Shown: one piece after another, positions 8,149 through 63,786 of the stretch
Layout of the letters: each line of letters opens with the position of its first letter
Position numbering within the stretch: position 1 is the stretch's first letter
From: Deltaproteobacteria bacterium
GTDB taxonomy: Bacteria > UBA10199 > SPLOWO2-01-44-7
Assembly (NCBI GenBank): GCA_023265595.1
Contig: JAHFSU010000004.1
Coordinates: forward strand, 1,667-65,666
DNA: 64,000 nt
Reading direction: 5' to 3'
Made by a program: the position numbers and the translations under genes
Notes under the pieces: model-generated
What the model was told of the DNA's origin: nothing
Databases searched by the model: none
Seen by the model: only the letters and a program-made list of their open reading frames with translations

Positions 8149-9300
8149 ATGACAGAGACTCTAGGAATCATTGGCAGTTCCATGCTGTTTCACGGGCTTT
8201 TTCCCATTATTTGGAAAGCGCTCCCGGACCAGCTTGTTATTTCTAAAAACGAAATTATAGATGCCGGAACCGTTGCGAAAGAAATAGGCCGCCATCTCCA
8301 CACCTCTCTTCTTCGGGACCATTGGATCGATTTTTCTTCCTGTCTTCTGAAACAACCTCAAGATCGACAAAAATCGGAACTCGACTCTTTGACGCGGCTG
8401 GCGCACCTGTTTAATGAGACGCCGCAGGATGAATTATCCGAGGCGGTCGAAAGGACAGCAAAACATTTTCAGAAATCGGGTATTTTATTTCTTAATGCCC
8501 CGGCGTTGGCCCGCGAGATCCATCGTCTGACCCTCTCTTTTCAGGGACAAACGCCGCCGCCGCCGACAACGCCAAATCCATGTATTGCAAAAGCGGTGGG
8601 TGTATTGATGCGCGCCACCGATGCAGCGCAAACAAAAGAGGAAAAAGAGGCCCTCAATTGGTGGATGGAATACCCACTCCGTGGAAAAACAGGCATGGAG
8701 GCCATTAGAGAGGCAAAGGCGGATTCTGGAAAAGCGACAAAACTCCGTCCGCTTCTTGAAAAATTCCCCGGCATTTTTGAGGTCGAAGAACTGGAATCTA
8801 TCTTGAATACGGCCTCATCCCAAGGAGATATCATGCAGGGTTTGGCTCATTTGATGATCGACCGGTGGGATTTTTTTGAAGCAAGACACCTTGACCGGAT
8901 CTTCATCCTCGCGGGACAACATCCCGGCATTGCCATCGCTTTGGCTTATCTTGCGTATCGAAGAGCCGAAATTTTTTCAGCATCGCATGTGCCGGCGCTC
9001 TTAAAAAAAACGGGGTTCGCATCGGTCCATCTCACCTTTCGATGGCCGCTTCAATGCATCCAATTTCCAAATATCTTGCACAAAATAATCAATCGAAGCG
9101 CTGTTTTTCGCGCCGTCGATTTGTTCAGACAACCGGCTTTCGGCATTGGATGGACTCTGTATGTGCTGGCGGAACGGCGCTCTGGAATTTTCGAAAAGAA
9201 TATGATTTGCCAACTCCACACAACCGGCAATCACAATGCACTGGTCCGATATGCTGTTGATGTGCTCCTCAAGAGCAACCCCTCATTGGCAAAGGCATAG
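8149..9300 (+). CDS. hypothetical protein
   Basis: Start trimmed to MTETLG (ATG 8149, AGGAGA 5 nt upstream) because the longer ORF overlaps eno. No recognised domain. Confidence 0.5.
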   Translation: MTETLGIIGSSMLFHGLFPIIWKALPDQLVISKNEIIDAGTVAKEIGRHLHTSLLRDHWIDFSSCLLKQPQDRQKSELDSLTRLAHLFNETPQDELSEAVERTAKHFQKSGILFLNAPALAREIHRLTLSFQGQTPPPPTTPNPCIAKAVGVLMRATDAAQTKEEKEALNWWMEYPLRGKTGMEAIREAKADSGKATKLRPLLEKFPGIFEVEELESILNTASSQGDIMQGLAHLMIDRWDFFEARHLDRIFILAGQHPGIAIALAYLAYRRAEIFSASHVPALLKKTGFASVHLTFRWPLQCIQFPNILHKIINRSAVFRAVDLFRQPAFGIGWTLYVLAERRSGIFEKNMICQLHTTGNHNALVRYAVDVLLKSNPSLAKA

Positions 9301-10215
9301 AAAGTGATCGACGGCAGAAACAGCAGCATCAAAAATATTTTTTAAACTCTCTTCCCCCCGGACCCAAAAAATGGACGGATCGGACCGAAACCATGTCCCC
9401 TGTCGTTTGGCAAATGCTTTTGTCTGTTTTTTGATTTCGGCCGTTGCCTCTGAAAGAGAGAGTTCTCCTTTCAAATGCGTTGCAATTGTTTTGTATCCCA
9501 ATGTTCTAAAGGCCTGCGAACCGGTCGAATAAAATTTCAACAATTCACGGACCTCTTCGACCCAGCCGTTGTAAAGCATCCAGTCGGTCCTTTTTTCGAT
9601 CCGCTCGTGCAAAACTTTTTTGTCGCAGCAAAGGCCGATTTGGAGCACCTCATAACGCGGATTTTGGAATTGATGTTTTTCCTGAAAAGTGGAAAGCGGA
9701 ATTCCCGTTATTTCATAAACTTCAAGGCCGCGGACGATGCGCGTGGTATCTTTAGGATTCAGTTTTTTGGCCAATGGGGGATCTCGGTTTTGAAGTTCTT
9801 CATGGAGTCTGTTTAAACCCTCGGTCTGAATTCGGGCTTCCAGTTCTTTTCTGATCTGCAGATCTTGAGGCGGCGCTTCACATAATCCGCGGAACAAAAC
9901 ACGAAGATACATGCCGGTGCCGCCGACGACGAACGGCACTTTGCCTCGACCAATGATGTCATCAATGGCTTTGTCCGCCAGAGCACAATATTGAGAGACA
10001 TCAAAATGTTCGCCCGGAGTGACGACATCAATCAGATGATGGGGAACACGCCGTCGCTCTTCAAAAGTCGGCTTCGCCGTCCCCAAATCGAGTTCACGCC
10101 AGACCTGCCCCGAATCGGCTGAAATAATTTCGCCATTATATTTTTGGGCCAACTCGATCGCCAGCTTTGTCTTGCCGCTGGCCGTCGGGCCACAAATGAC
10201 AACAATTTTTTTCAT
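9283..10215 (-). CDS. miaA: tRNA dimethylallyltransferase
   Basis: P-loop at the N-terminus, MKKIVVICGPTASGKTKLAIELA, and the typical MiaA length of 310 aa. Confidence 0.9.
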   Translation of the reverse strand: MKKIVVICGPTASGKTKLAIELAQKYNGEIISADSGQVWRELDLGTAKPTFEERRRVPHHLIDVVTPGEHFDVSQYCALADKAIDDIIGRGKVPFVVGGTGMYLRVLFRGLCEAPPQDLQIRKELEARIQTEGLNRLHEELQNRDPPLAKKLNPKDTTRIVRGLEVYEITGIPLSTFQEKHQFQNPRYEVLQIGLCCDKKVLHERIEKRTDWMLYNGWVEEVRELLKFYSTGSQAFRTLGYKTIATHLKGELSLSEATAEIKKQTKAFAKRQGTWFRSDPSIFWVRGEESLKNIFDAAVSAVDHFLCLCQ

Positions 10216-10544: not shown

Positions 10545-10586
10545 AGAGACTTTTGCTTTTGTATTATGGGAGCGTTGAAAAATGTC

Positions 10587-10655
10587 ACTCCTGCGAAAGC
10601 AGGAGTCCAGAAGTCATTGAAATTACTGGATCCCCGCTTTCGCGGGGATGACAAA
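10587..10655. repeat. hairpin repeats, family 2 (CTGGATYCCCGCTTTCGCGGGRATGACAA) plus a GAAA-loop hairpin
   Basis: ctcctgcGAAAgcaggag (10589-10606) and ctggatccccgcTTTCgcggggatgacaa (10627-10655). A near-identical copy is at 53411-53439. Confidence 0.55.
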
Positions 10656-10959
10656 AAAACCATTTTTCAACACTCCCATTATTCCGATATTAGAAATGAA
10701 AATAGAACTTAAAAAATTTGGAGACCTCTTGGTATCAAGGCCCGCAGGCAGGGAGGCCTTTTTGACTATAAAATCCTATTTCAAACCCTCTTCTCCTTCG
10801 GAGAACATCGAACTCGATTTCACGGGAGTAAAAGTCATGACCCCTTCTTGGTTGGGAGAAGTATTGGATGGGTTAAAAGAAGAGTTCGGCGAACGAGTCC
10901 GCTGTCTCCCCTCCGAAAATCCTACGGTAGTGGAATCGTTAAAAGCGCTGGAAGAATAA
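10648..10959 (+). CDS. DUF4325 / STAS-like domain protein
   Basis: About 100 aa, ...LDFTGVKVMTPSWLGEVLDGLKEEFGERV..., resembling STAS-like DUF4325 proteins that usually partner a GHKL ATPase. The true start may be MKIELKK at 10696. Confidence 0.55.
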   Translation: MTKKPFFNTPIIPILEMKIELKKFGDLLVSRPAGREAFLTIKSYFKPSSPSENIELDFTGVKVMTPSWLGEVLDGLKEEFGERVRCLPSENPTVVESLKALEE

Positions 10960-11843: not shown

Positions 11844-13615
11844 TCAAGTTCGCTTAAACCATTTTTCGATTTCGCTCAGCGAGAGTTCAACGCTTGTTGG
11901 GCGGCCATGAGGGCAATGGGTGGCGTGGTATTCATCCATCTCGATCAACAGATGGCGCATTTCTTCGAAGGACAATTTATCCTGAGCCCGCACCATCGTA
12001 TGACAAGAGATCGTTTTCAAAACGTGATCGATCGCATTGCCGACCGTTTGTGCCGTCCCTATCTCCTCTAATTCCTCGGCTATTTTTTCCAGCAGTTCCT
12101 TGGTTTTGGCTTCGCGAATCAAGGCCGGCACCGCTTTGATGACAAAAGTGTTTTGACCAAATGGTTCGATTTCGATTCCCGTTTTTTGTAAATCTTCCAG
12201 ATGACTATTCATGAGGGCGGTCTGTTTGGTTGTGGCCTCCCATGTGATCGGAACCAAAAGTCTCTGTGCCACATTTTTATTTCCCAAATTTTTCTTCAAT
12301 TTCTCAAAGCCAATTCTTTCGTGCGCCGCATGTTGATCGATCAGGATCAGTTTGCCACCAGACGCCTCGCACAAAATATAGGTATCATTAAAAGAGCCGA
12401 TGACTTTGAGCTCTTTGAAAAAAAACACTGGAAAATTTTCCGGATCGCGCAAGCGAGCCGGTTGAGAAAAGCGTCCCGGAGCCACGCCATACATTGTGGG
12501 GGCTACGAAAACTGGCGGGGCGAGGGTCGAACCCCCAATTTGGGGGTGAAATCCCCAAATTGAGGGGTGTCTTTTCGAAACCGGCTCGCTTGCGCGATCC
12601 GGAAAATTTTCAGTTTTTTTCTGCAACGCTTTTTTTATCGCCTTGGAAACAAACTCATGAATGCCCTGCGGTTTGACAAAACGGACTTCGCGCTTGGCCG
12701 GATGGACATTCACATCGACCTCTTTGGGATCGATCTCCAGATACAAAACGGCTTTGGGGTAGCGCCCCTTCATCAAAAAATCGCCGAAGCCGGCAATTAA
12801 GGCATGTTGCAACATCCGGTCGCGCAAAAAACGACCATTGAGATAAAAGTGGATATCGTTGGCCGTCGATGCCGTCTGGTTGGGAGAGACAAGCCATCCT
12901 TTTAGTGTCAACTCCGGATGCCTCTCTTCGACCGCAATCCCATTGGCAACAAAATCATCGCCTAAACAAGATTGCAGTCGCTGCAAAGGATCTTTCCCCA
13001 CAGGAGATGAAATTTTCGAAACACCATCAACAGAATAATCAAACGCACAATCAAAGTTGGATAAAGCCAAACGGATAAAAATGTCTTCAATGTGGCCCAG
13101 CTCCACTCCGTCTGATTTCAAAAATTTAAGACGGGCCGGCGTGTTGTAAAAAAGTTCCTGCACCAAAACACGTGTCCCTTTGGGAGAGGCGGCCGGACTC
13201 GCCTCAACAACCTTTCCTCCATGCACCTGAACAGCGGCCCCTTCCAGAGTGGCCTCTTGGGCCTTTGTCCAAATCTTCATTTTGGAAACGGCCGCAATGG
13301 AGGGGAGCGCTTCGCCGCGAAACCCGAGTGTCCGAATATTGAAAAGATCCCCCTCACCGGCAAGTTTGCTGGTGGCGTGGCGTTGAATGGCCAACTGAGC
13401 CTCTTCCAAACTCATGCCACAGCCGTTGTCGGAAATTTCAATCTGGTCGCTTGGCCTCTTGGAAACGGCCGCTTGAATATGTGTCGCACCGGCATCGATG
13501 GCATTTTCCATCAGCTCTTTGACAACCGAGGCCGGGCGCTCGACCACCTCACCGGCCGCAATTTTATCTGCCAGTTGTTGCGGCAAAATTTTGATTGGAG
13601 GCATAAGGGATGGCA
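11844..13615 (-). CDS. mutL: DNA mismatch repair protein MutL, carrying an in-frame palindromic insertion in the linker
   Basis: N-terminus MPPIKILPQQLADKIAAGEVVERPASVVKELMENAIDAGA (GHKL ATPase). C-terminal dimerisation domain with FVIKAVPALI. The linker holds ...ENFPDRASEPV...FSQPARLRDPENFP... encoded by a 33-bp inverted repeat. Confidence 0.9.
12431..12611. mobile_element. MITE-like structured palindromic element inserted in-frame in mutL
   Basis: A perfect 33-bp inverted repeat, gaaaattttccggatcgcgcaagcgagccggtt (12431-12463) against 12579-12611, flanks a 115-bp hairpin-rich core. The reverse complement of the core aligns with 45261-45410 over the identical blocks tttcgaaaagac, tcgaccctcgcc and gctccgggacgcttttct. 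Confidence 0.7.
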
Positions 13616-18650: not shown

Positions 18651-18721
18651 TCGGGGGTCATCTAACGGTAGGATTGCAGACTCTGACTCTGCTCGTCGTG
18701 GTTCGAATCCACGCCCCCGAA
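18651..18721 (+). tRNA. tRNA-Gln (anticodon CTG)
   Basis: Manual cloverleaf: acceptor tcggggg/cccccga, D-arm atct-aacggta-ggat, anticodon stem gcaga/tctgc with loop cTCTGac, T-arm cgtgg-ttcgaat-ccacg, discriminator A. CCA is not encoded. Confidence 0.85.
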
Positions 18722-20080: not shown

Positions 20081-20261
20081 ATACCGTTATCGTCCCCCCT
20101 CCAAAAAAGTTGCTTTGTCTCAAGAATGCAACATGTTGTGTTGCGGCGCTACGAAATCAAAGAGTCGTAATAATAAAAACTAAATAAATTCAAAGCATTG
20201 CTCTTGTCAATCCTTGGCCTTCTTTTTGCAACATTGAGAAAGAAAAAAACAAGGAGGCAAT

Positions 20262-20486
20262 ATGGGAAACCGCATCACCGATGTAACCAGCGTGACAGAA
20301 AACTGCCGTTATGAATGGTACAAAACTCATGATGAGTTTGGCATTTTGGTGGACGATGTGCGAAAAAAGTGTGATCACTATTATCGTGCCGACTTCGCCG
20401 ATGGGAGCCAAAAAGAGGTTGCCCTTTGGGATTATTTAAAGTTTCACGTGAACAAATTATTTCACTCCTCTGAAAATACAAAATAG
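20262..20486 (+). CDS. small hypothetical protein (74 aa)
   Basis: AAGGAGG sits 6 nt upstream of the ATG. No recognisable motif. Confidence 0.5.
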   Translation: MGNRITDVTSVTENCRYEWYKTHDEFGILVDDVRKKCDHYYRADFADGSQKEVALWDYLKFHVNKLFHSSENTK

Positions 20487-20644
20487 ATCTTGTTTTTATC
20501 ATAAGGAAAAAGGGACGGGAGTGTGTCTTTCTTGCGGGGCCATCAAAAATTTCGATGACCGAGGCGGGCAGACGGCTTCTTGTGAAATACCAAGCAACTT
20601 TTTTGGAGGCCTGCCGATAAGTAAGATAGAAAGGAAAAAATGTT

Positions 20645-44427: not shown

Positions 44428-44783
44428 CCCTTTTCGACCCTCTCCTGCTCTTCCTTGCAACGGATGCACAAATCGGTGACGGGGCGGGCTTCCAGACGTT
44501 TCACGCTGATCTCTTCGCCGCACGATTCACAAACACCAAAGATCCCTTCATCAATTTTTTCCAGAGTTCTCTCAATTTTTTTGAGTAAAACCCGTTCGCG
44601 GTCGCGAAGTCTGAGATTCATTGATTGGTCGGCTTCGGTGGTGGCCAAATCGATTTCATCAGCAAGGTCTTCAGAATTAAAACCCAAGCCCTGCTCTTTG
44701 GTTGTACTCACGGCAGCCAAAAGGGCCTGTTTTCTTTCTTCCAGCAATTTTCTAAACCGGCCTAAATCTTTTTTATTCACTTG
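44415..44783 (-). CDS. DksA/TraR-family C4 zinc-finger protein
   Basis: C-terminal CESCGEEI...CIRC (C-x2-C-x17-C-x2-C) plus an N-terminal coiled coil. GTG start at 44783 with GGAGG 7 nt upstream is preferred over the longer ORF. Confidence 0.65.
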   Translation of the reverse strand, partial: QVNKKDLGRFRKLLEERKQALLAAVSTTKEQGLGFNSEDLADEIDLATTEADQSMNLRLRDRERVLLKKIERTLEKIDEGIFGVCESCGEEISVKRLEARPVTDLCIRCKEEQERVEKGYAD

Positions 44784-44874
44784 GAGCCTCCCCTTCTTCC
44801 CAATTTCGAGCAGGTGATATTTGACGAATAACCTTTTGTTGTCAACCCAAAATAGATGTGGCTTAAAGCGACCT

Positions 44875-45195
44875 ATGGCCAACTCCAAGCCACCGTTTCA
44901 TCCCCTCGACGAAATTCTAGGCCGATTTTTGAAAGGCCGCAAGTGGGAGGCGAAACTGAAACAATATTCGCTGCATACCCGCTGGGCAGAAATTGTCGGC
45001 CCCAAAATTGCCATTCAAGCAACCCCGACCATTTGGCGCGGCAATACATTATTCGTCGAAGTCTCCCATCCGGCTTGGCTGACGGAACTCCGGATGATCG
45101 AATCCGACATCCTCGAAAAAATCCGTTCCCATTGTGAAGGAATCGCAATCGAAAAAATCCATTGGATCCTAAGACCCGCTGTCTCACATAAATAA
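44875..45195 (+). CDS. DUF721 (DciA-like) protein
   Basis: ..LHTRWAEIVGPKIAIQATPTIWRGNTLFVEVSHPAWLTELRMIESDILEKI.. matches the DUF721 W-x-EIVG...L-x-V-x-V-x-S-x-W-x-x-EL pattern. Divergent from the dksA-like gene. Confidence 0.6.
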   Translation: MANSKPPFHPLDEILGRFLKGRKWEAKLKQYSLHTRWAEIVGPKIAIQATPTIWRGNTLFVEVSHPAWLTELRMIESDILEKIRSHCEGIAIEKIHWILRPAVSHK

Positions 45196-45227
45196 TCTTC
45201 TACGACGTTTGTGATGCGGCGGGTTTT

Positions 45228-45436
45228 TGCGAGGTTGTGAGGACTTCCGCGCACTGTTTTCGAAAAGACGTGGGTTGTTTTGGGGAGTTCCCCAAAACAC
45301 CCACTCGACCCTCGCCTCGCCGATTTGTTCCGCCCCACCTACACGGCAGGTGGGGCTTAAACCCCCAATCGGTGCGGCGAGGCTCCGGGACGCTTTTCTT
45401 AAAACAGTTCGCTCGCGTCCTCACAACCTCGCATCA
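45228..45436. repeat. structured palindromic element A, same family as the mutL insertion (candidate structured RNA or MITE)
   Basis: Long-range imperfect inverted repeat gcgaggttgtgaggac... against ...gtcctcacaacctcgc. It encloses nested hairpins (ttttggggagttccccaaaa; cccacctacacggcaggtggg; cctcgccg/cggcgagg). The core aligns to the reverse-complemented mutL insert. Confidence 0.6.
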
Positions 45437-45501
45437 AAAGAGCATATTGTACGGCCCCCGCAAAACAAAATGTCCGTTTTGTTTTGGAGGAGGGTTAAGC
45501 A

Positions 45502-45696
45502 GTGACATGGCAATGAGGGTGATGAAAAGCCTGCGGATGGCGATTTTATCAGCCGGGATACAATAAATAAAATCGCCACCATAGGAGCGAAATCAGCTAG
45601 CTCGGATGCGACGCTTTCGCGTCGCCGTTAAACGCTGTCGCGGGGCCGTCCCAAAAATTGTCGCGTCTTTTCAGCACCCTCATTGCCATGTCACTT
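45502..45696. repeat. structured palindromic element B (20-bp perfect closing inverted repeat around hairpins)
   Basis: gtgacatggcaatgagggtg (45502-45521) is the exact reverse complement of 45677-45696. Internal hairpins include ggcgatttta...taaaatcgcc and gcgacgCTTTCgcgtcgc. No plausible CDS. Confidence 0.5.
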
Positions 45697-45699
45697 CAT

Positions 45700-45752
45700 G
45701 GTCATCCTGAGGGCGTGCAATCCCGAGCCGGTCAGGACCCATCCCTTTTTGC
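45700..45752 (+). terminator. putative intrinsic terminator ending the dciA-A-B transcript
   Basis: GC-rich hairpin ggtcatcctgagggcgtgcaatcccgagccggtcaggaccc, then atcccTTTTTgcg. Confidence 0.4.
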
Positions 45753-45791
45753 GATTTCATTCGAGGTCGTAGAAGATTATTTATGTGAAAT

Positions 45792-46430
45792 TTAAGACTT
45801 CTGAAAGCAGCGAATCACTTCATCGGCTGGGATGGCGCCGTCGCGGATAATGCGCATCGTCTCGTCGGTCACGTCAACCACCGTGGAACCGCGCGACGGT
45901 TCCTGCTCTCCGGCATCGATAATACAAGCCAGCCGGTTTTCAAAATATTTCCGAATATGTTTGACGTTGAGCGACGGCGGAAAACCGCTCAAATTGGCGC
46001 TCGTTGTCGTCAGCGGCCGCCCCACTTTGGCCACCAAGGCCGCCGCCACCGGATGCGAAGAAACGCGGACACCGATTTTTCCGGTATTGGTCACCAGACT
46101 TTTCGGAAAAGAATCTTTCACATGAAATAAAATCGTGAGCGGACCGGGCCAAAAACGGCGCATGAGGGCTACGGCCCTCTCCGGAATTTCATCGACAATG
46201 TCACGCAACATGCTTCCATTAGCCACTAAAACGGAAATGGGGAGTCCGTAATCGCGGCTTTTAAGATCATAGATTTTTTTGATCGCCTTTTTGCTAAAGA
46301 CATCTGTTCCCAAACCGTAAATCGTCTCAGTCGGATAGGCAACAACCTCTCCCTTTAAAATGAAATCGGCCGCTTTGGCGACAGCTTCCGCCTCCGGAAC
46401 TTTCGGACTGATCTGAATAATTTCGGTCAT
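45792..46430 (-). CDS. tsaC: L-threonylcarbamoyladenylate synthase (YrdC/Sua5 family)
   Basis: KGEVVAYPTETIYGLGTDVFSKKAIKKIYDLKSR matches the YrdC signature. Start MTEIIQ abuts the purD stop. Confidence 0.8.
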   Translation of the reverse strand: MTEIIQISPKVPEAEAVAKAADFILKGEVVAYPTETIYGLGTDVFSKKAIKKIYDLKSRDYGLPISVLVANGSMLRDIVDEIPERAVALMRRFWPGPLTILFHVKDSFPKSLVTNTGKIGVRVSSHPVAAALVAKVGRPLTTTSANLSGFPPSLNVKHIRKYFENRLACIIDAGEQEPSRGSTVVDVTDETMRIIRDGAIPADEVIRCFQKS

Positions 46431-47683
46431 CGGCCGATATCCTTTCTGTAAACCATCCCCTCCCACGAAATTTTCTGTACCCCTTCATACACCCTCTCTA
46501 ATGCGTCATTAAAATCGCTCCCCAGCGCCGTGACACCCAGAACCCGACCGCCGTTCGTAACGATGTCCCGATTTTTTTTCTCCGTTGCGGCATGAAAAAC
46601 AAAAAGATCTTTTTCTTTGGAAATCGCTTCAAGCCCTTTGATGGAAAATCCCGTTTCGACTTTTTCGGGATATCCCTTGGAGGCCATCACCACGCAAGCC
46701 GCCGGCTTGGTCTCCCACGAAAGCTGTATTTCATTTAGTTCCCCTGCCAAGGCCGATTCAAAAAGAGCTACAAGATCGGTTTTGAGACGAAACAAAATCG
46801 CTTGCGCCTCGGGATCCCCCAAGCGGACATTGAATTCTAAAAGTTTCGGCTCACCCTTGTCGATCATCAGCCCCGCATATAAAAAACCGATGAACGGATT
46901 CCCTTCCGTTACCATCCCTTTGACTGCCGGCCACATAATTTTTTCCATCACTTTTTCATACAAATCGGTATTCATGATCGGCGCCGGGGAGATGGCCCCC
47001 ATGCCACCGGTGTTGGGGCCTTTGTTGCCATCCAACAAACGCTTGTGATCCTTCGCAGAGGCAAGAGGCAAAATATGATTTCCGTCGCAAACAGCGATGA
47101 ACGAGGCCTCCTCCCCCTTCAAAAAATCCTCTATCACGATTTTTTTCCCGGCTTCGCCGAAACGGCCGTCGACCAAGGCCTCTTCAACGGCTTGAAGCGC
47201 TTGCTGTTCCTTCTGACAAACAGTTACGCCTTTGCCGGCGGCCAATCCGTCTGCTTTTACAACAACCGGAAATGTCTTTGTTTTGAGATATTTTTTAGCT
47301 TCGACACTCTTTTCAAAAATCTGATAGGTGGCTTGAGGGATCGCAACCCGTGAGCAAAATTCTTTGGTATACACTTTAGAGGATTCGAGCAGGGCCGCCT
47401 CTTTTTGCGGCCCAAAAATGGGACAATGATTTTTTTTAAACAAGTCGACGATCCCCAATGCGAGCGGCGCCTCCGACCCTACAACCGTCAGATCGATTTT
47501 TTCCGATTTTACAAATTGCAAAAGGCCATCAATGTCGGTGGCCCCAATCGCCACGCATTTGGCCTGTGGGGCCATACCGGCATTACCGGGGGCACAAAAA
47601 ATTTTTGGATTTTTGGACGACTGGGCAAGCTTCCAAACCAACGCATGCTCTCTCCCGCCACCGCCGATGACTAATACTTTCAT
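46427..47683 (-). CDS. purD: phosphoribosylamine--glycine ligase
   Basis: MKVLVIGGGGREHALVWKLAQS and ATP-grasp blocks are typical of PurD. 418 aa. Confidence 0.95.
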   Translation of the reverse strand: MKVLVIGGGGREHALVWKLAQSSKNPKIFCAPGNAGMAPQAKCVAIGATDIDGLLQFVKSEKIDLTVVGSEAPLALGIVDLFKKNHCPIFGPQKEAALLESSKVYTKEFCSRVAIPQATYQIFEKSVEAKKYLKTKTFPVVVKADGLAAGKGVTVCQKEQQALQAVEEALVDGRFGEAGKKIVIEDFLKGEEASFIAVCDGNHILPLASAKDHKRLLDGNKGPNTGGMGAISPAPIMNTDLYEKVMEKIMWPAVKGMVTEGNPFIGFLYAGLMIDKGEPKLLEFNVRLGDPEAQAILFRLKTDLVALFESALAGELNEIQLSWETKPAACVVMASKGYPEKVETGFSIKGLEAISKEKDLFVFHAATEKKNRDIVTNGGRVLGVTALGSDFNDALERVYEGVQKISWEGMVYRKDIGR

Positions 47684-53404: not shown

Positions 53405-53439
53405 TGTCATCTGGATTCCCGCTTTCGCGGGAATGACAA
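53405..53439. repeat. hairpin repeat family-2 copy
   Basis: tgtcat-ctggattcccgcTTTCgcgggaatgacaa, near-identical to 10627-10655. Confidence 0.55.
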
Positions 53440-53450
53440 GCGAACCACCT

Positions 53451-54809
53451 TTATTTCGCCAAACTCGAGAGACCCATCACACTCTTGATCTGATCATCCA
53501 CAATTTGAAATCCGCCGCCGACAAAATAATCGATCGACTGGCGCGGATTGATAAAATCATCCGCACCGCCGACCAGATACAAATTCTGCGTCAAATTGAG
53601 CTGTCCCAACGCTTTTAAGTGTGGCTTCGAATTGAATTTGGTCTGAAAATCAAAGGCGCTGAACTGGGCATTGAGCGGCCCTTGGGCATAATCGAGGCCA
53701 ACCCCGCCGGTTGATTCAATCAGACCGCCGCGAATTCTCAAATTATAAAATTTCTTGGCGAGCTGTGCCGAAAAAAGGAGTTTGTTCCGCTGCAAAACAG
53801 CCGTTTCGGTCTGCACCGTCGTTGTGGTTCCACCGACCGTAATATTGGTTGTCCGGTTTTCCCGTTTGAGCGGCGGCTCTGTATCATTAACCAAGGATAG
53901 CAAAACCGCTTCATCCGGCGTCAAACCCAAAGCAATATCAAAATAATTTTTAAAATCCTCCGAGGATTTGAGATATTCCGTGTGAAAACCGAGGGACAAT
54001 TCGAGAGAACGATAGCCGCCGAGCGCATCATTCAAACTATCCAGAGAGTCATTGAGTTTTTGAATCGTCTCCGGGTCATTCACCAGTTTGCCGATCGTCC
54101 CGCGCCCTTCGTCAATTTTTTGTGAAATCGATGCAATCCGTTCGCTGGACAGCTCTACATTGGCGCGACTATTGGAAACCATCCCCTTTATTTCATGCGT
54201 TAAATCGGCCATGTTTTGCATGATCCGATCGAGATTCTGTTCGTTACGGACAGAAACCTCCCGCAACACACGAACAAAATCGTTCAGATTATGAACGGTA
54301 GTGGCAATCTCCCCTCCCTTTTCTTCATTCGTCCATCCCTTAATCGTGCCGGTGATATCTTTTACATCATCCGCTACCGAACCAAATTGATTGACCAATG
54401 TGGTCACATCCCCGCCGCTTTCCGTTTTGACAAAGAAATCTCCCTTTTTGAGAGAGGGGAGATGGGGATCGCCGGTAATGATTTCCACATAGGCCTCTCC
54501 CAAAAATCCGCGTGTTTTCAAAAAAGCGAGACTGTTTTGCGGAAATTTCACACTCTTTTTGATAGCCAAACGGGCTTTGGCCTTCCCGTCCGGAGTCAGG
54601 CCGATATCCTTGACCACCCCCACATCGACACCGGCTACTTCAACCGCCGCCTTGGGATAAAGGCCGGCTGCATTGCTGAAGATAGCATAAAGATCATAGC
54701 CGCCGCCCGCGACAATGGACTGATCCCCAACACGAATCGTCGCAAAAATAATAATGATGACGGTGAGGATGGCAAAAATGCCGACCTTTATTTCCGGTTT
54801 GAGTTTCAA
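53451..54809 (-). CDS. MCE-domain (MlaD-like) substrate-binding protein
   Basis: N-terminal TM, then an MCE domain (..YDLYAIFSNAAGLYPKAAVEVAGVDVGVVKDIGL..) and a long helical C-terminal extension. Downstream of mlaE and mlaF. Confidence 0.8.
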   Translation of the reverse strand: MKLKPEIKVGIFAILTVIIIIFATIRVGDQSIVAGGGYDLYAIFSNAAGLYPKAAVEVAGVDVGVVKDIGLTPDGKAKARLAIKKSVKFPQNSLAFLKTRGFLGEAYVEIITGDPHLPSLKKGDFFVKTESGGDVTTLVNQFGSVADDVKDITGTIKGWTNEEKGGEIATTVHNLNDFVRVLREVSVRNEQNLDRIMQNMADLTHEIKGMVSNSRANVELSSERIASISQKIDEGRGTIGKLVNDPETIQKLNDSLDSLNDALGGYRSLELSLGFHTEYLKSSEDFKNYFDIALGLTPDEAVLLSLVNDTEPPLKRENRTTNITVGGTTTTVQTETAVLQRNKLLFSAQLAKKFYNLRIRGGLIESTGGVGLDYAQGPLNAQFSAFDFQTKFNSKPHLKALGQLNLTQNLYLVGGADDFINPRQSIDYFVGGGFQIVDDQIKSVMGLSSLAK

Positions 54810-57536: not shown

Positions 57537-57992
57537 ATGCGATTTGGGATCACACAAAAGCCCCAGAAACCGATTCGACTTTCCAACCTTCTTGAAATAA
57601 AAGAGGCCTTCTCAAAATATTGTCGAAAAAACCCGATCGATCTGGTATTTGTTCACGGCTCCCTTGCGCAAGATAAATTAAAGACATTGAGCGACATCGA
57701 CATTGCCGTATTATTTAAAGAGGGAGGTAAAGATATTTTGAAAGCTATTTCGAAAACGGTCGACAAACTATCAGAACTCATCGATCGCGAAGATATCGAC
57801 CTCATGATGTTAAACAAAGCGTCCCCCCTTGCTTGCATGCAGGTACTTCGCAACGGCAAAATTCTTTATTGCCGCAATCTATCGGTGCTCAAAAAGTTTC
57901 GCCTAAAAACCATACAACGTTATTTGGCAACGAGCTATTTGCGTACCACATTCAACCGCCGCATGGAGATGGCCATCCTTGGAGAAAAATAA
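57537..57992 (+). CDS. nucleotidyltransferase (MNT-type antitoxin)
   Basis: Pol-beta NTase motif VFVHGSLAQDKLKTLSDIDIAVL (GS-x9-13-D-x-D). Directly followed by a HEPN gene. Confidence 0.7.
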   Translation: MRFGITQKPQKPIRLSNLLEIKEAFSKYCRKNPIDLVFVHGSLAQDKLKTLSDIDIAVLFKEGGKDILKAISKTVDKLSELIDREDIDLMMLNKASPLACMQVLRNGKILYCRNLSVLKKFRLKTIQRYLATSYLRTTFNRRMEMAILGEK

Positions 57993-58418
57993 ATGTCCCC
58001 CCTCGACAAAGAATCAATAGAATCAAAAGTAGCCCGTATTCGGAAAAATTTAAGGGAACTTAAGAAGTTCAGCCAACTTCCCTACAAAGATTACGTCAAA
58101 GATTTCCACAACACCGCCACGGCTGAACGATTCTTGCAGGTCTCCATCGAGGCCATGCTCGACATCGGCTCCCATATTATTGCCGAAGAGGGATTGGGAG
58201 AGCCGATCGAATACCGGAATGTTTTTGCCATTCTGCTACAGGCCAAAATTCTCCCCCCTTCCATGGAAAAATCGTTGATGGATATGGTCGGCTTGAGAAA
58301 CCGCATTGTCCATCTTTATGAAGACATCGACCACAAAATGATCCACCGTTTCCTCAAAAAAGAACTCCCCGATTTCAATCTCTTTATCGAAACCATCACC
58401 CGCTACCTCAAAAAATAA
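57993..58418 (+). CDS. HEPN-domain toxin (HepT/DUF86-like)
   Basis: R-x4-H motif GLRNRIVHLYEDID. ATG abuts the MNT stop. Confidence 0.75.
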   Translation: MSPLDKESIESKVARIRKNLRELKKFSQLPYKDYVKDFHNTATAERFLQVSIEAMLDIGSHIIAEEGLGEPIEYRNVFAILLQAKILPPSMEKSLMDMVGLRNRIVHLYEDIDHKMIHRFLKKELPDFNLFIETITRYLKK

Positions 58419-58438: not shown

Positions 58439-61405
58439 TTGACGAAGAAAGGGTTGATGACCTCCATACTAAACCTTGCCCATTTACAAACCGGTTCGGG
58501 TCTCCTCTTTGGCATGCCGGAGACCCTTTATGCCGACCCCAAAATCGCCGCCAGCGCTTTTTTGGCCGTTCCCGCGATGGAACTCGGCGCCGAACTCCAT
58601 GCCATCCGCGATGCCTATGTCCAAATTGATCCGAAGTCCGGTCAAAAATTTCGCCGGCATCTACACGACTACAAGAGGGCTTTGAAAGAGGAGGATCAAA
58701 AAGCCGCATGGACTGCGCAAAGATCCATGGCCGCTATTTTTCGAAGGACCGGCCGGCGGCATTGGGAATTTTTGTTGGAAAAACTTAAAAAAAAGGGATG
58801 GCCGATGAGAAACGGGTTTTTGAAAACGCCGGCAAGTTCGAAGAAACATGTCATCTCTATTTTGGAATTGAGAATGATGGAGTGGGATCCTCAAGATTAT
58901 CGGCTGGATCCATCCCGTTTTTCGATCACAGACCCGATTCGTATCTCTTCCCTGAAGACTGTCGAACAAAAGATCGCCTCCCTTTTCGAACCGGGTGCGG
59001 ACCGCGACCGCATCCCATGGTTTGTCTTTGAAGGGCCATGGCCCATGGACAATTTGTTTTTGATCGATCCCAAAAAAATTGAGGCCGCCTCCAAAGACTA
59101 TGCCAAAAAAGCGGTTGCCTTGATCACGGTTGCGCCGGAAAATCGGCACATCGCCCTCTATTGTCATCAAAACCGGTTCGGTCTCTGGGAGCTTTTTTGC
59201 TATTCGGATTATTACGACAACCCGGACGGCCTTTGGCAATGGGATCATCATGCCGCATTTTGGGAAAAATGGGATTTGACCGGCATCGACAAAGAAGGGG
59301 GCAATCGGTTTATCTTTGCGAACCTCAACACGGAGCTCTATTTTTCCGGACGCTTTAAGAGACCCATAGAGGTCGATCCCGATTACCGTAAAAAAATCGA
59401 AAAGAGAATGCGAAAAGGGACATGGATCGGCGAGAGATGGAAAGAGGTCCTTCAAAGACACCCCTTGTTATTCCGGTGGCTTTCCCTCCCCCACTCACTT
59501 GTGGAAATCCCCGTCTCTCTTGATGCGCTCCGTTGCGAAACGGATAAGGGTCTGAATGGGGCCACAGGGGCTCTCAGAAATATCTGGCATCTTCTTGATG
59601 AAAAAGACCCGGATGAAGCCGAATACAAAAAGAGGATCCTTTCTCTTTTGAAAAGTCTCCGCTACGGTCGCGAAAAGGATTTCAGAGAGCTCGGCCTTTT
59701 GCTGGAAGAGATGCATCAGAATGAATATATCGACCAACACCAAATGAAAGTCGGTTTTTATCAACTCACCAGAGCACAAAAAATTCTGCGCGATCAGAAA
59801 AAACTCGAGCAGGGCAAAAATCGGGAGATGGAGACCGTATCTCTCCGCTTGGGGCTTTGGAGACGCGATCCGTGGTTCGACGGCTTGATCGGCATCAGCG
59901 ACAGGGCCTATGAAGATTTAAGCAATCAGGTCCTTCTCCTTTATGCCCCCAACGGCGACATGCTGGACGCTTGCGCCCTTCGCCTCTTTGAAGATGAAAA
60001 GGAAAATCTTTATCTTTTTTATGATCCCCTTCCTTTCCCGTATCGTCACTGGCGTGTGGAAAATTACGAAAAAACGCTGTTGCAATGCATCCGAAAGATC
60101 GGAAAAAAATGCGGAATCCCCGAAGACCGGATCCGGGAGATGCAGGGGGTTCAAGATTTCAACTGGCTCCAAGGGATAGGCGGTCTCCATCCTATAACGG
60201 CATCCAAGGAAGAAAGAGCGGCGGCGCTGGAAAAAAGAAAAATATGGAGACACCCTCTCGAAGGTTTTCTCGCGGAGGGACAGGGGACCTATGAGGCACT
60301 TAATATTTTTGGGTCGAGCCGTCTTGTTTTTTGTAACCCATGGCTCGGTGATCGGATCCCGATCCCCAACGGATTTGATGGGGTCCCTTATGAACTTCTC
60401 CCTCCCAAAAATGTCGGCTTTCCTCTTTCACTGACAATCAATCCCGAACCGCATCTTGCCGGCACCCAAGTTGTCGGTTACTCAATCGGAACAGGACGTT
60501 CGATCGATCTGGCTGTCGATTTCAAGGATAAGGATGGGGTGCAATGGCATCACTTGAGTCTTGTCGGCGTGGGGAAGACACACCGCGCGCGGCTCGGGCG
60601 TCTGGAATTTCGGGATGGACAACACTCGCTCGATGTTGCCCAACGCCGTTTTTATCTCTCGAACCTGATGCATTTTTTGGGACTCCGCACCGCGCGCGGG
60701 ATGGCCGTCATCAGCGCCGAAAGGCCGCGAGAAGGAGCTTTCAAAAATGGCGCCTTGCCCCAAATTCAGGCTATCCTTTATGAACTCTGCCGGGAACAGC
60801 TTCGACTGGATGATTTGTCACGCGCCGAAAACCCGTACCGGATGATTCATCATGTCAAAAGAAAAATTGCCGCGGAGCTCGGCCTCCCACGCATGAGCGA
60901 TGCGGAATATGTGAGATGGCTTGGCCATACACTCGGTGAACAGTTCGCCCTGATGATCTTTTACGGTTTCGATCACGGCGTCTTCAACGGGATGAGCCAG
61001 CTTACTGCCTTCAACGTCTCCTTGGCCGGTGAGATACGCGATTTTGATGCGGCCGGACTGACCCGCGACCGAAATCGACTGCACGATCGTTACTTCCATG
61101 GAAAAAAGAGTGTTTATAGTACCGATTTGAATCTGCACGCCGTTCTAAGAATGCAGCAGATGTTGTCCAGAGGACCCCGAAACATCCCCCGCGCCACCGG
61201 CAAACCATGGCTTCATTTTCTGCTCGATCTGGCCCCGTATGCAAATTTTTACGATCTGTTTCAAACCGCGATGGATCGGAAGCGACAGGAATTGGAAACG
61301 AGCGGGATCGATCCCAAGGCCGAGATCCGGCGTTTTAATACAGAGATGTGGAATCCCTATATGCGGCAATTAAGGAATTCCCGTTTACACGGGGATGACA
61401 AATGA
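58439..61405 (+). CDS. large hypothetical protein, paralog 1 of a tandem family
   Basis: 988 aa, no TM or signal peptide. Shares blocks with the next gene: GYSIGTGRSIDLAVDF..DGVQWHHLSLVGVGKT, RFYLSNLMHFLGLRT, LYELCREQLRLDDL, MSDAEYVRWLGHTLGEQFALM..FGFDHG, DFDAAGLTR, WNPYMR. Confidence 0.6.
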   Translation: MTKKGLMTSILNLAHLQTGSGLLFGMPETLYADPKIAASAFLAVPAMELGAELHAIRDAYVQIDPKSGQKFRRHLHDYKRALKEEDQKAAWTAQRSMAAIFRRTGRRHWEFLLEKLKKKGWPMRNGFLKTPASSKKHVISILELRMMEWDPQDYRLDPSRFSITDPIRISSLKTVEQKIASLFEPGADRDRIPWFVFEGPWPMDNLFLIDPKKIEAASKDYAKKAVALITVAPENRHIALYCHQNRFGLWELFCYSDYYDNPDGLWQWDHHAAFWEKWDLTGIDKEGGNRFIFANLNTELYFSGRFKRPIEVDPDYRKKIEKRMRKGTWIGERWKEVLQRHPLLFRWLSLPHSLVEIPVSLDALRCETDKGLNGATGALRNIWHLLDEKDPDEAEYKKRILSLLKSLRYGREKDFRELGLLLEEMHQNEYIDQHQMKVGFYQLTRAQKILRDQKKLEQGKNREMETVSLRLGLWRRDPWFDGLIGISDRAYEDLSNQVLLLYAPNGDMLDACALRLFEDEKENLYLFYDPLPFPYRHWRVENYEKTLLQCIRKIGKKCGIPEDRIREMQGVQDFNWLQGIGGLHPITASKEERAAALEKRKIWRHPLEGFLAEGQGTYEALNIFGSSRLVFCNPWLGDRIPIPNGFDGVPYELLPPKNVGFPLSLTINPEPHLAGTQVVGYSIGTGRSIDLAVDFKDKDGVQWHHLSLVGVGKTHRARLGRLEFRDGQHSLDVAQRRFYLSNLMHFLGLRTARGMAVISAERPREGAFKNGALPQIQAILYELCREQLRLDDLSRAENPYRMIHHVKRKIAAELGLPRMSDAEYVRWLGHTLGEQFALMIFYGFDHGVFNGMSQLTAFNVSLAGEIRDFDAAGLTRDRNRLHDRYFHGKKSVYSTDLNLHAVLRMQQMLSRGPRNIPRATGKPWLHFLLDLAPYANFYDLFQTAMDRKRQELETSGIDPKAEIRRFNTEMWNPYMRQLRNSRLHGDDK

Positions 61406-63786
61406 TTACAGCAACGAACATTTTTTTGGGGGTGGGGCCGGCGATTTATTCTGATCCACTGTTGGCCTCCGAAGTATTGACAGCGGTCCTTCCGGAAAAT
61501 CTGGGGGCCGATGCCTTTGTGCTGGCGGAGGCTTATACAGAAATCGATCCCAAAACGGGCACAAAATTAAAAGAGCTTCTGAAGGAGCATGCTCAATTCT
61601 TGCGCGATGGACTTGAGTTCAACACCGGCGGCACGCCGAAAAATATGTTGGCTTCTTGGATTCGGGAAACAGATCCCGGCATCTGGAGAGCAGTTCTTGA
61701 AAAAGCAAAAAAGCACACATGGGCCTTTCAAAGAGGTTGGCTGAACACCGCAATTTCTCCTCACGCTATTTTTTGCGCCGTCGCCTGTAGGAATCATCAC
61801 CGCAAACCCATTGAAGAGCTGCTCCCGGGCGCGGATCATCCCACCTTGCAGGATTGGCTCCATCTCAAAGTTGAAGAGGAGTTTACGATTCCAGCAGAGC
61901 TTATTCTGGATGAGCTGACGCAAAACTTCAGAAGTTATTTTGCCACACTTTTAAAACCGGCTATTTATTTGGACCATGCAACGGCACAATATCAAGAATA
62001 CTGCCAAATTTTAAAATCGCTCGGATTCACCTCTCTTGACGGGATCACCCTATTATCTGAAATAGAAAAACAGGCCGGCTTGGCGATCCCGAAAAAAGTG
62101 ACGCCCTTGGATAATGAAAATGTGGCGCAAGCGATACAATTTTTAACCCAGTTAATTTCTTCCGGATTTGCGGCAGTGCTATTTAATGAAGCAGACTTGG
62201 AGATTGTTCTGGCGATGATGCACGATGCAGCATCAACGGCCGTCGCCTATGAAGAGGTTGAAAAATATGGGCCGATTCGCTGCCATGTTTCCCTCTTGCA
62301 GAGAGATTTAAAATGGGAAGACCTATTGAAAATCCCCGAATCCCGGCGCGCCAATTTGCAGACGCAAATACTGGTGGTATCTCTTCCAAATGGAGATATT
62401 CTGAAAGGCTACGCGCTCCATCTCTATCAATCGGTCTTTGATGGAAAGCGGCGCCTGTTCTTTTCCAGAATTGAACCGCTACGAATGAAATCATGGTGGC
62501 ACACAAGCCCCGTGCAAGGCTTCATCGAAAAAGCAATGACCGCCGTTTTGGAGGAGGTCATGGAGAGGATGGGTGCAAAATCGCTCCATGCCCTCAGAGA
62601 GTCGGACATTCCCAACTGGATGCATGGGTCAATACCGATCACTCATGCCTTGGATGCCGATTTCAAATCGGAACAAATCAGCGTATGGGAACATCCCTAC
62701 CATTCTTTTTTCAAACCGGGGGATGGTTCCCATGAGGCGATGCGGGTTGTTGATGGGGCCACGCTGGCCATGCTCAATCCGTGGGTTGGGTTGCGAAACG
62801 ATCGCTTTGCCGCTGATCTTTTGTTGCGCGAGATCGATCCGAATCCCGATTTTCAAGACTCATCACAATATCTTTTTGGATTTTCAACCGGCACCGGCCG
62901 CTCGGTTGATTACGCCATCGACTACACTGGCCCCGATGGAACCCATTGGCATCACCTCAATGCAATCGGCGTCGGCAAAACCGAGAAGGCCCGCACCGGG
63001 GTAGAAAATCGCGACGGACTTTTGCCGCTGGAAGGAGCCAAAAAGCGATTCTATTTTTCCAATCTGATGCATTATCTCGGTTTAAGGACATCGCTGGCCA
63101 TCGCTGTCGTTGATCGCAAGCAAATCCGCGAAGATGGAGAGAAAAGCCCCGGCATCCCGCAAACGCAGGCGACCCTTTACGAACTGCGCCGCGAACAACT
63201 GCGGCTGGATGATCTGGAGAAACTCGACGCCGCCATATTCGCACTGGATCGCATCAAACCAAAACATGCCCGGGATATGGGGAAAACAAACATGAGCGAT
63301 GAGGAATATGTCACATGGCTTGCCCAAACACTCGGAGAACAGTTCGCCATCATGGAATATTTCGGTTTCGACCACGGCATCATCGAAGGGGCCGCGCAAC
63401 TGCATCCGGGAAATATAGGTCTCGACGGATCGATTTACGACTTTGACTCGGCGCGACTTACCCGAAACAGAGAAACACTCCATGAACGCTACGAAAACGG
63501 CAAGGAGATAGTCAGCCGAAGAATGATTTGGGCATGGGAACAGGAATGGCGGAACAGCCGGTCACCCAAAAGTTGGCTGGGTCACCTTCTCCATCTCGCT
63601 CCGAACATCGATTTTTATGACATCATGACCCGCGCCGAACAGGAGAAAAAAGAGGCGCTTCAAAAAAGCGTCCCGGACCCCAAAGCAAAAATCCACGAAT
63701 TTAATGTGAACTATTGGAACCCCTACATGCGGGGATTGAGACAGATGTTAGCTGTTAACATATGCTCCTTGATGGGGGTGGGTTAG
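61402..63786 (+). CDS. large hypothetical protein, paralog 2 of the tandem family
   Basis: 794 aa. Carries the same blocks (GFSTGTGRSVDYAIDY..DGTHWHHLNAIGVGKT, RFYFSNLMHYLGLRT, LYELRREQLRLDDL, FGFDHG...LHPGNIGLDGSIYDFDSARLTR, WNPYMR). ATG overlaps the paralog-1 stop. Confidence 0.6.
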   Translation: MITATNIFLGVGPAIYSDPLLASEVLTAVLPENLGADAFVLAEAYTEIDPKTGTKLKELLKEHAQFLRDGLEFNTGGTPKNMLASWIRETDPGIWRAVLEKAKKHTWAFQRGWLNTAISPHAIFCAVACRNHHRKPIEELLPGADHPTLQDWLHLKVEEEFTIPAELILDELTQNFRSYFATLLKPAIYLDHATAQYQEYCQILKSLGFTSLDGITLLSEIEKQAGLAIPKKVTPLDNENVAQAIQFLTQLISSGFAAVLFNEADLEIVLAMMHDAASTAVAYEEVEKYGPIRCHVSLLQRDLKWEDLLKIPESRRANLQTQILVVSLPNGDILKGYALHLYQSVFDGKRRLFFSRIEPLRMKSWWHTSPVQGFIEKAMTAVLEEVMERMGAKSLHALRESDIPNWMHGSIPITHALDADFKSEQISVWEHPYHSFFKPGDGSHEAMRVVDGATLAMLNPWVGLRNDRFAADLLLREIDPNPDFQDSSQYLFGFSTGTGRSVDYAIDYTGPDGTHWHHLNAIGVGKTEKARTGVENRDGLLPLEGAKKRFYFSNLMHYLGLRTSLAIAVVDRKQIREDGEKSPGIPQTQATLYELRREQLRLDDLEKLDAAIFALDRIKPKHARDMGKTNMSDEEYVTWLAQTLGEQFAIMEYFGFDHGIIEGAAQLHPGNIGLDGSIYDFDSARLTRNRETLHERYENGKEIVSRRMIWAWEQEWRNSRSPKSWLGHLLHLAPNIDFYDIMTRAEQEKKEALQKSVPDPKAKIHEFNVNYWNPYMRGLRQMLAVNICSLMGVG

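Follow-up and report, generated by a model that had tools for sequence, protein, structure and literature searches.

Rickettsia palindromic elements are repeats of ~150 bp that occur between genes as well as in frame within unrelated housekeeping genes, where they are translated and persist across species (PMC10969869). REPs are single hairpins of 20–40 bp with a GTAG or CGTC tag, two of them in inverted orientation form a REPIN, and REPs are extragenic by definition (PMC3733652, PMC3337134). MITEs are shorter than 500 bp, have no coding capacity of their own, carry terminal inverted repeats, are usually A+T-rich and occur as intergenic and intragenic copies. In the window analysed here, by which we mean the whole 64-kb stretch of DNA (64,000 nucleotides), we found three copies of one palindromic repeat, termed A, B and M. 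Judging from the sequence, element A is probably a member of a non-autonomous palindromic DNA repeat family of ~150–220 bp, like the Rickettsia palindromic elements or the MITEs, and not an RNA gene; we put the probability of this reading at about 0.58.

Element A lies in a 596-nt spacer between two converging genes, dciA on the left (44875–45195, + strand; 106 aa; PF05258, E = 4e-20) and tsaC/Sua5-YciO-YrdC on the right (45792–46430, − strand; 212 aa; E = 2e-55). The first-pass annotation of this DNA had described the spacer as dense in hairpins and free of credible ORFs, and both descriptions are correct. The fold z-scores of the interval 45180–45792 are −15 (+ strand) and −14 (− strand), and the six ORFs of 45–109 aa that overlap the spacer have neither a Pfam match nor a record in a collection of 15 billion proteins. 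Element A itself (45228–45433, + strand) had been proposed to consist of an imperfect inverted repeat of ~40 bp around three hairpins. The closing stem is indeed imperfect and of this size, with 44-nt arms (45228–45271 and 45390–45433) that are 77% complementary and 118 nt apart, but it encloses two adjacent hairpins, one of which contains the third. Hairpin 1 (45273–45302) has 14-nt arms, TTTTGGGG and CCCCAAAA, with 93% complementarity, while hairpin 2 (45307–45385) has 19-nt arms with 84% complementarity and harbours the inner hairpin, read from the sequence at 45332–45356. The predicted fold of A (45222–45440) reaches −123.4 kcal/mol, as compared to −69.6 ± 4.9 kcal/mol in dinucleotide shuffles (z = −11), and none of the 200 shuffles matched it. 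QMITE2 of Coxiella likewise has a very stable predicted stem-loop, at about −113 kcal/mol.

Element M (12422–12620, − strand; 199 nt) lies within mutL (11844–13604, − strand), in frame and without a stop codon, and constitutes practically the entire variable linker that joins the ATPase and C-terminal domains of MutL. It has 50-nt arms with 88% complementarity and a fold z-score of −13. The proposal that A aligns to the reverse complement of this mutL segment, as one family, is supported by BLASTN, by common blocks and by covariance models. The + strand of A matches the − strand of M in two BLASTN blocks (E = 2e-6 and 1.6e-5), the exact blocks TTTCGAAAAGAC, TCGACCCTCGCC and GGCTCCGGGACGCTTTTCT are common to both, and the 18-mer GGCTCCGGGACGCTTTTC occurs within the window in A and M only, with 0.1 chance matches expected at 3 mismatches. 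By comparison, A and M have unrelated sequences in the outer 17–30 nt of their arms, and in the lower stem of hairpin 1, eight consecutive pairs are altered on both sides. A match of 16 out of 18 positions to the core 18-mer at 63663–63680 is probably due to chance, as neither covariance model supports it; it falls within a 794-aa ORF (61402–63786), itself without a Pfam match.

We built two covariance models, R1 from A and M, and R2 from five copies (A, M and the copies found in the relatives L163, L027 and L162). Element A scored 194.8 bits with R1 and 130.9 bits with R2 on the + strand, versus 21 bits on the − strand, while the R2 scores of the other training copies were 132.3 (M), 132.5 (L163), 120.5 (L027) and 98.6 bits (L162). 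Element B (45488–45708, − strand) is a diverged copy in the opposite orientation to A, with 83% complementarity between its 42-nt arms. Neither model was trained on it, and R2 gave 52.9 bits (E = 1.4e-11) on the − strand and 14.5 bits on the + strand, while the two-sequence model R1 gave 13 bits. Given this R2 score on the − strand, A and B are two members of the family in opposite orientation. Element B also shows similarity to the mutL copy of L027. In total, six copies are known from four genomes, with lengths of 144–221 nt, and a scan with the covariance models revealed no further match in the window or in ~103 kb of the relatives' DNA. In all six, a long inverted repeat closes the element around one hairpin whose stem is T3-5G3-5/C3-5A3-5 and another whose length varies.

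Between A and B there is a small A+T-rich hairpin (45456–45490), formed by CAAAACAAAA and TTTTGTTTTG at 45461–45486, and the whole spacer is enclosed by a perfect 23-nt inverted repeat (100% complementary), whose loop of 559 nt holds the two repeat copies. The dciA gene draws its final three codons and its stop codon from the left arm of this outer repeat (45184–45206), and the right arm (45766–45788) ends 3 nt before the stop codon of tsaC and is partly common to the relative L148 (AATAATCTT). DciA terminates in ...WILRPAVSHK here (window 45178–45195) and in ...WILRH in the relatives; as the ends differ, the outer repeat has rewritten the end of dciA. A scan of 44700–46500 for intrinsic terminators called none at the ends of A or B, and neither element is followed by a U-tract; the sequence directly after A is TCAAAAGAGC. 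No convincing promoter or terminator flanks A. Two short-read assemblies of the same organism fail to bridge the A–B region, with Logan contigs ending at 45213 and 45727 and an ENA contig ending near 45661, and these breaks are weak evidence for repeated or hard-to-sequence palindromic DNA.

To compare the dciA–tsaC site, we used contigs of relatives reached via the 90%-identity TsaC cluster, whose tsaC genes show ~80% nucleotide identity. In L151–L157, the tsaC–dciA spacer is 121 nt long and consists of a single A+T-rich palindrome with 51-nt arms (6961–7081 in L151), which abuts both stop codons and is unrelated to the family. The contigs L148–L150 all end 39–117 nt after tsaC, inside a different, incompletely assembled palindrome. 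A model scan found no family copy corresponding to A or B at this site in L148–L157, the contigs of L148–L150 being incomplete there. The dciA–tsaC site always holds a palindrome, with lineage-specific content, and because of this lineage-specificity a conserved RNA gene at the locus is ruled out at this evolutionary depth. The outer 23-bp stem of the window abuts both stop codons in the manner of a bidirectional-terminator-type hairpin, as does the 51-nt-arm palindrome of L151–L157. It differs from such a hairpin in its 559-nt loop, filled by two repeat copies, and in the lack of U-tracts.

The copies in the relatives all reside in mutL. R1 gave full-length matches in the mutL linkers of L163 (90 bits, E = 6e-27; antisense; MutL 52% identical), L027 (38 bits, E = 4e-10; sense; MutL 68% identical) and L162 (36.5 bits, E = 2e-10; sense; MutL 44% identical). 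Thus, all three matches fall within 1.2 kb of linker among ~103 kb, an outcome with a probability of ~1.6e-6 under random placement, although these loci were reached through MutL and the sampling is hence biased. The start of the element relative to the conserved LQKK motif varies by up to ~11 codons between the mutL copies, and the in-gene copies, M and those of L027 and L162 in sense and that of L163 in antisense, are translated in different frames, as unrelated peptides. Approximately 46 nt around hairpin 1 of A are ~90% identical to the L163 copy, and A is closer to it there than to M of the same genome, although the respective MutL proteins are only 52% identical.

In the model scan, four of the eight mutL genes (L159, L160, L161 and L166) lack the family. 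Their linkers hold unrelated repeats instead: a REP-like doublet in L159, a weak palindrome in L160, a GGACC-rich inverted repeat in L161 (2819–2943) and a tandem heptamer, (GGACGAR)n, in L166 (11036–11134). The carriers are P0001, P0002, P0013 and P0015, and the non-carriers are P0003, P0005, P0008 and P0017; P0008 and P0017 are the nearest relatives of the carriers P0013 and P0015 in the set, yet do not carry the family. MutL is no longer in carriers (582–594 aa) than in non-carriers (571–615 aa), indicating that the element serves as the linker rather than as an addition to it. For each of the six mutL genes examined (those of the window, L027 and L159–L162), the most or second most structured 150-nt window begins at nt 991–1021, which is the start of the linker.

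Searches of larger collections did not extend the family. The 18-mer GGCTCCGGGACGCTTTTC had 25 single matches in 185,579 species genomes (one per species, the source genome not included), all of them in unrelated taxa, with no similarity past the seed, and attributable to chance. A scan of JGI metagenomes with the pattern ACCCTCGCC N{34,64} GCTCCGGGACGC returned at least 120 matches, and none among the matches listed resembled the element; this pattern is too permissive in G+C-rich DNA, so copies could be missed. Scans of viral contigs gave no real match. A HMMER search with the 70-aa linker peptide, which tests one frame only, had 0 matches among 1.84 billion representatives, and BLASTP of 120 MutL linkers against the translations of the six copies, with its low sensitivity for diverged or frame-shifted copies, recovered the four known carriers only. 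As the genome and metagenome scans yielded only chance matches, the family appears to be rare or narrowly distributed.

In the alignment of the six copies, 92% of the cells are paired, as compared to 64% in shuffles and ~46% with slid partners. Of the 51 pairs, 39 are altered on both sides, and one-sided change occurs in only two. Taken alone, this pairing pattern resembles that of a structured RNA. Several features, in contrast, point to complementarity being maintained at the level of DNA. If a single RNA strand were under selection, G·U pairs would be tolerated and A·C pairs would not. Among the 293 cells, 264 are Watson–Crick, 6 are G·U and 6 are A·C, and this equality gives no sign of the wobble tolerance expected under selection on a single RNA strand. 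Either strand of each element folds about equally well, with 1–6 G·U pairs, and the invariant bases are mostly in stems, while the hairpin-1 loops vary among the copies (alignment read by eye). Template switching between the arms of an inverted repeat makes the arms alike and can flip the spacer, and it can therefore produce apparent compensatory changes and orientation flips in the absence of any RNA function (PMC8604942, PMC7202029). For five of the six copies, the strand is that of the gene which contains or precedes them (P = 0.11 by chance): A comes after dciA and B after tsaC, and the sense copies within mutL are M and those of L027 and L162.

These results bear on the interpretation in the first-pass annotation, which had found no RNase P P4, tmRNA or SRP domain IV motifs and had taken a conserved core with diverged terminal arms as more typical of a functional structured RNA than of a selfish MITE. 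The core/arm pattern is confirmed, now for six copies from four genomes. Scans with Rfam 15 likewise gave no known family: over the whole window, gathering scores retained only a tRNA at 18651, and within 45100–45850 at E ≤ 10, the best match was mir-4436, whose 21.8 bits fall below its gathering score of 74 and are sub-threshold noise. The inference of a structured RNA, on the other hand, is not supported, given the equal numbers of G·U and A·C cells and the similar folding of both strands. It is further opposed by the differing frames of the mutL copies, by the antisense orientation of one of them and by the site without a copy in relatives. The candidate 'new structured RNA' is thereby removed. 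More generally, double compensatory changes alone are not proof of RNA selection in DNA palindromes, and the balance of G·U against A·C and the orientation of the copies should be checked.

Compared with the described systems, the family shares with the Rickettsia palindromic elements the occurrence of palindromic ~150-bp copies both between genes and in frame within them. The likeness is one of behaviour. The family is found in another phylum, among MAGs of uncultivated 'Deltaproteobacteria', and the known in-gene copies here are all in the MutL linker, where they replace the linker instead of extending the protein. With MITEs, the family shares a length below 500 bp, the lack of its own coding capacity, terminal inverted repeats and a mixture of intergenic and intragenic copies. 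However, the outer 17–30 nt differ completely between A, M and the copies of L027 and L162, so the ends are not those of a MITE with common terminal repeats; only M and the L163 copy have common ends, CTGAAAA...TTTTC(C)AG. In addition, neither a target-site duplication nor a parent insertion sequence was seen, and the elements are G+C-richer than the genome (52–59% versus 47%), whereas MITEs are usually A+T-rich. The family is thus not a textbook MITE. Clusters of REPs, REPINs or BIMEs resemble A and B in their alternating palindromic units at converging 3′ ends, for which roles in termination and mRNA stabilisation have been proposed (PMC3733652, PMC3337134), but the present elements are polar three-branch structures of 150–220 bp and lack a GTAG or CGTC tag; they are neither REPs nor REPINs. 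A REP-associated tyrosine transposase is encoded in L027, the closest relative, at 9088–9708 (NF047646, 86.5 bits), ~3 kb from mutL; its flanks (8985–9060 and 9708–9770) carry GTAG-type REPs (GTAGGCGTCGGACCCCTAGAGGGG), which are unrelated to the family.

As a palindromic DNA repeat, the family would have arisen by duplicative spread, with transposition by a trans-acting enzyme, recombination or template switching as the possible routes. The copies would settle where insertions are tolerated, such as the loop of a terminator-type hairpin between converging genes or the disordered linker of MutL, and those in the linker would be read through as protein, as the Rickettsia palindromic elements are. 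The layered arrangement of the spacer, together with the unrelated outer arms around a common core in A and M, suggests that new copies settle in the middle of hairpins that are already there; at the dciA–tsaC site the layers are the outer perfect stem, followed by A, the small hairpin and B. The most likely effect of A (+) and B (−) within the perfect 23-bp outer stem would be a barrier to read-through and 3′-end protection for both mRNAs, as a by-product of folding.

The patchy distribution of carriers among the relatives supports a DNA repeat. Against a mobile one weighs the observation that no identical or near-identical pair of copies, as would indicate recent movement, is present within the 64 kb. 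None of the six copies is flanked by a consistent direct repeat indicative of a target-site duplication, although old copies may have lost theirs, and neither Pfam nor the neighbour gene lists revealed a transposase, or a RAYT, in the window. Blocks of 13–19 nt are conserved across lineages of saturated divergence, which may be the result of selection in place and not of mobility, and the sense bias of five out of six leaves room for a role at the RNA level. The unexpected part is the recurrent residence in the mutL linker across deep divergence, which could stem from an old presence that some lineages lost, from targeting of the region, or from transfer together with segments of mutL.

Such an RNA-level role could be that of a cis-acting element, which would operate within the host mRNA once transcribed, would stabilise or terminate 3′ ends behind dciA and tsaC and, in mutL, would slow ribosomes at the domain boundary or uncouple mutL expression from the expression of the downstream genes. 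The orientation of five of the six copies in sense to the gene that they lie in or directly follow, the very stable folds, the position of the linker start among the most structured windows in six out of six mutL genes, and the three-branch architecture, kept with covariation, all fit this explanation. We nevertheless consider it unlikely, because G·U pairs do not exceed A·C pairs, L163 has its copy in antisense, neither A nor B runs into a U-tract or was called in the terminator scan, the hairpin-1 loops vary, and the mutL genes of four relatives carry unrelated repeats instead. A free-standing small RNA gene, in which A would encode a trans-acting structured RNA, is very improbable. Its strong structure with covariation and its location in a gene-free spacer are what such a gene would show, but Rfam gave no match, the scanned relatives showed no member of the family at this site, paralogues lie within a reading frame, the element has no convincing promoter or terminator on its flanks, and the pairing has no strand bias.

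The mutL copies invite a different explanation, in which the mutL linker is the long-standing home of the family, where it has a role at the DNA level, for example as a protein-binding or recombination site, or a role in MutL expression, and A and B are secondary copies. The location of the three matches of the relatives in linkers (~1.6e-6 under random placement) and the use of the element as the linker itself, carrier MutL being no longer, argue for it, while the absence of the family from four of the eight mutL genes, including the closest relatives of two carriers, the shifts of the start by up to ~11 codons from LQKK, the reversed orientation in L163 and the bias of a sampling that reached its loci through MutL argue against it; we regard this explanation as quite unlikely. 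Doubtful to a similar degree is a specific, recurrent tie of the family to mutL, by which it would enter, or be retained in, the linker in either orientation in MutL proteins of 44–68% identity and constitute that linker, with A and B as spill-over. Behind such a tie could be the targeting of a pre-existing palindrome, hitch-hiking with mutL segments in horizontal exchange, or an influence of the palindrome on the amount or stability of MutL that acts as a built-in mutation-rate switch.

Under the preferred reading as a palindromic DNA repeat, behaviour like that of the Rickettsia palindromic elements is documented outside Rickettsia. Unusually, a palindromic repeat here provides a core protein of DNA repair with a linker of functional length, and does so in several lineages that diverged deeply. 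Should the association with mutL be real, it would bear on the renewal of disordered linkers and on whether repeats in mismatch-repair genes influence the evolution of mutation rates.

A second, REP-like hairpin family, GTCATyCCCGCGAAAGCGGGrAT, is shared across the genus and often occurs as inverted doublets. In the window it is present at 10563–10682 (hairpins at 10586–10655), 53406–53452 and 61368–61402, and in the relatives at 1825–1886 of L148, 2420–2446 and 2774–2800 of L151, and 6398–6518 of L159, the last of these being the doublet that lies in frame within the MutL linker and is translated as VIPAKAGIQ. Elsewhere in the window, a 32-nt inverted repeat (20087–20118 and 20589–20620; 84% complementary) surrounds a 470-nt intergenic stretch. 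It was rejected as a family member, its sequence being unrelated to A, B and M, and a small ORF was read by eye within the enclosed stretch at approximately 20263–20486. At 57537–58418, a nucleotidyltransferase gene (PF18765/PF01909) is paired with a gene for a HepT-like RNase (PF01934), forming a toxin–antitoxin type module.
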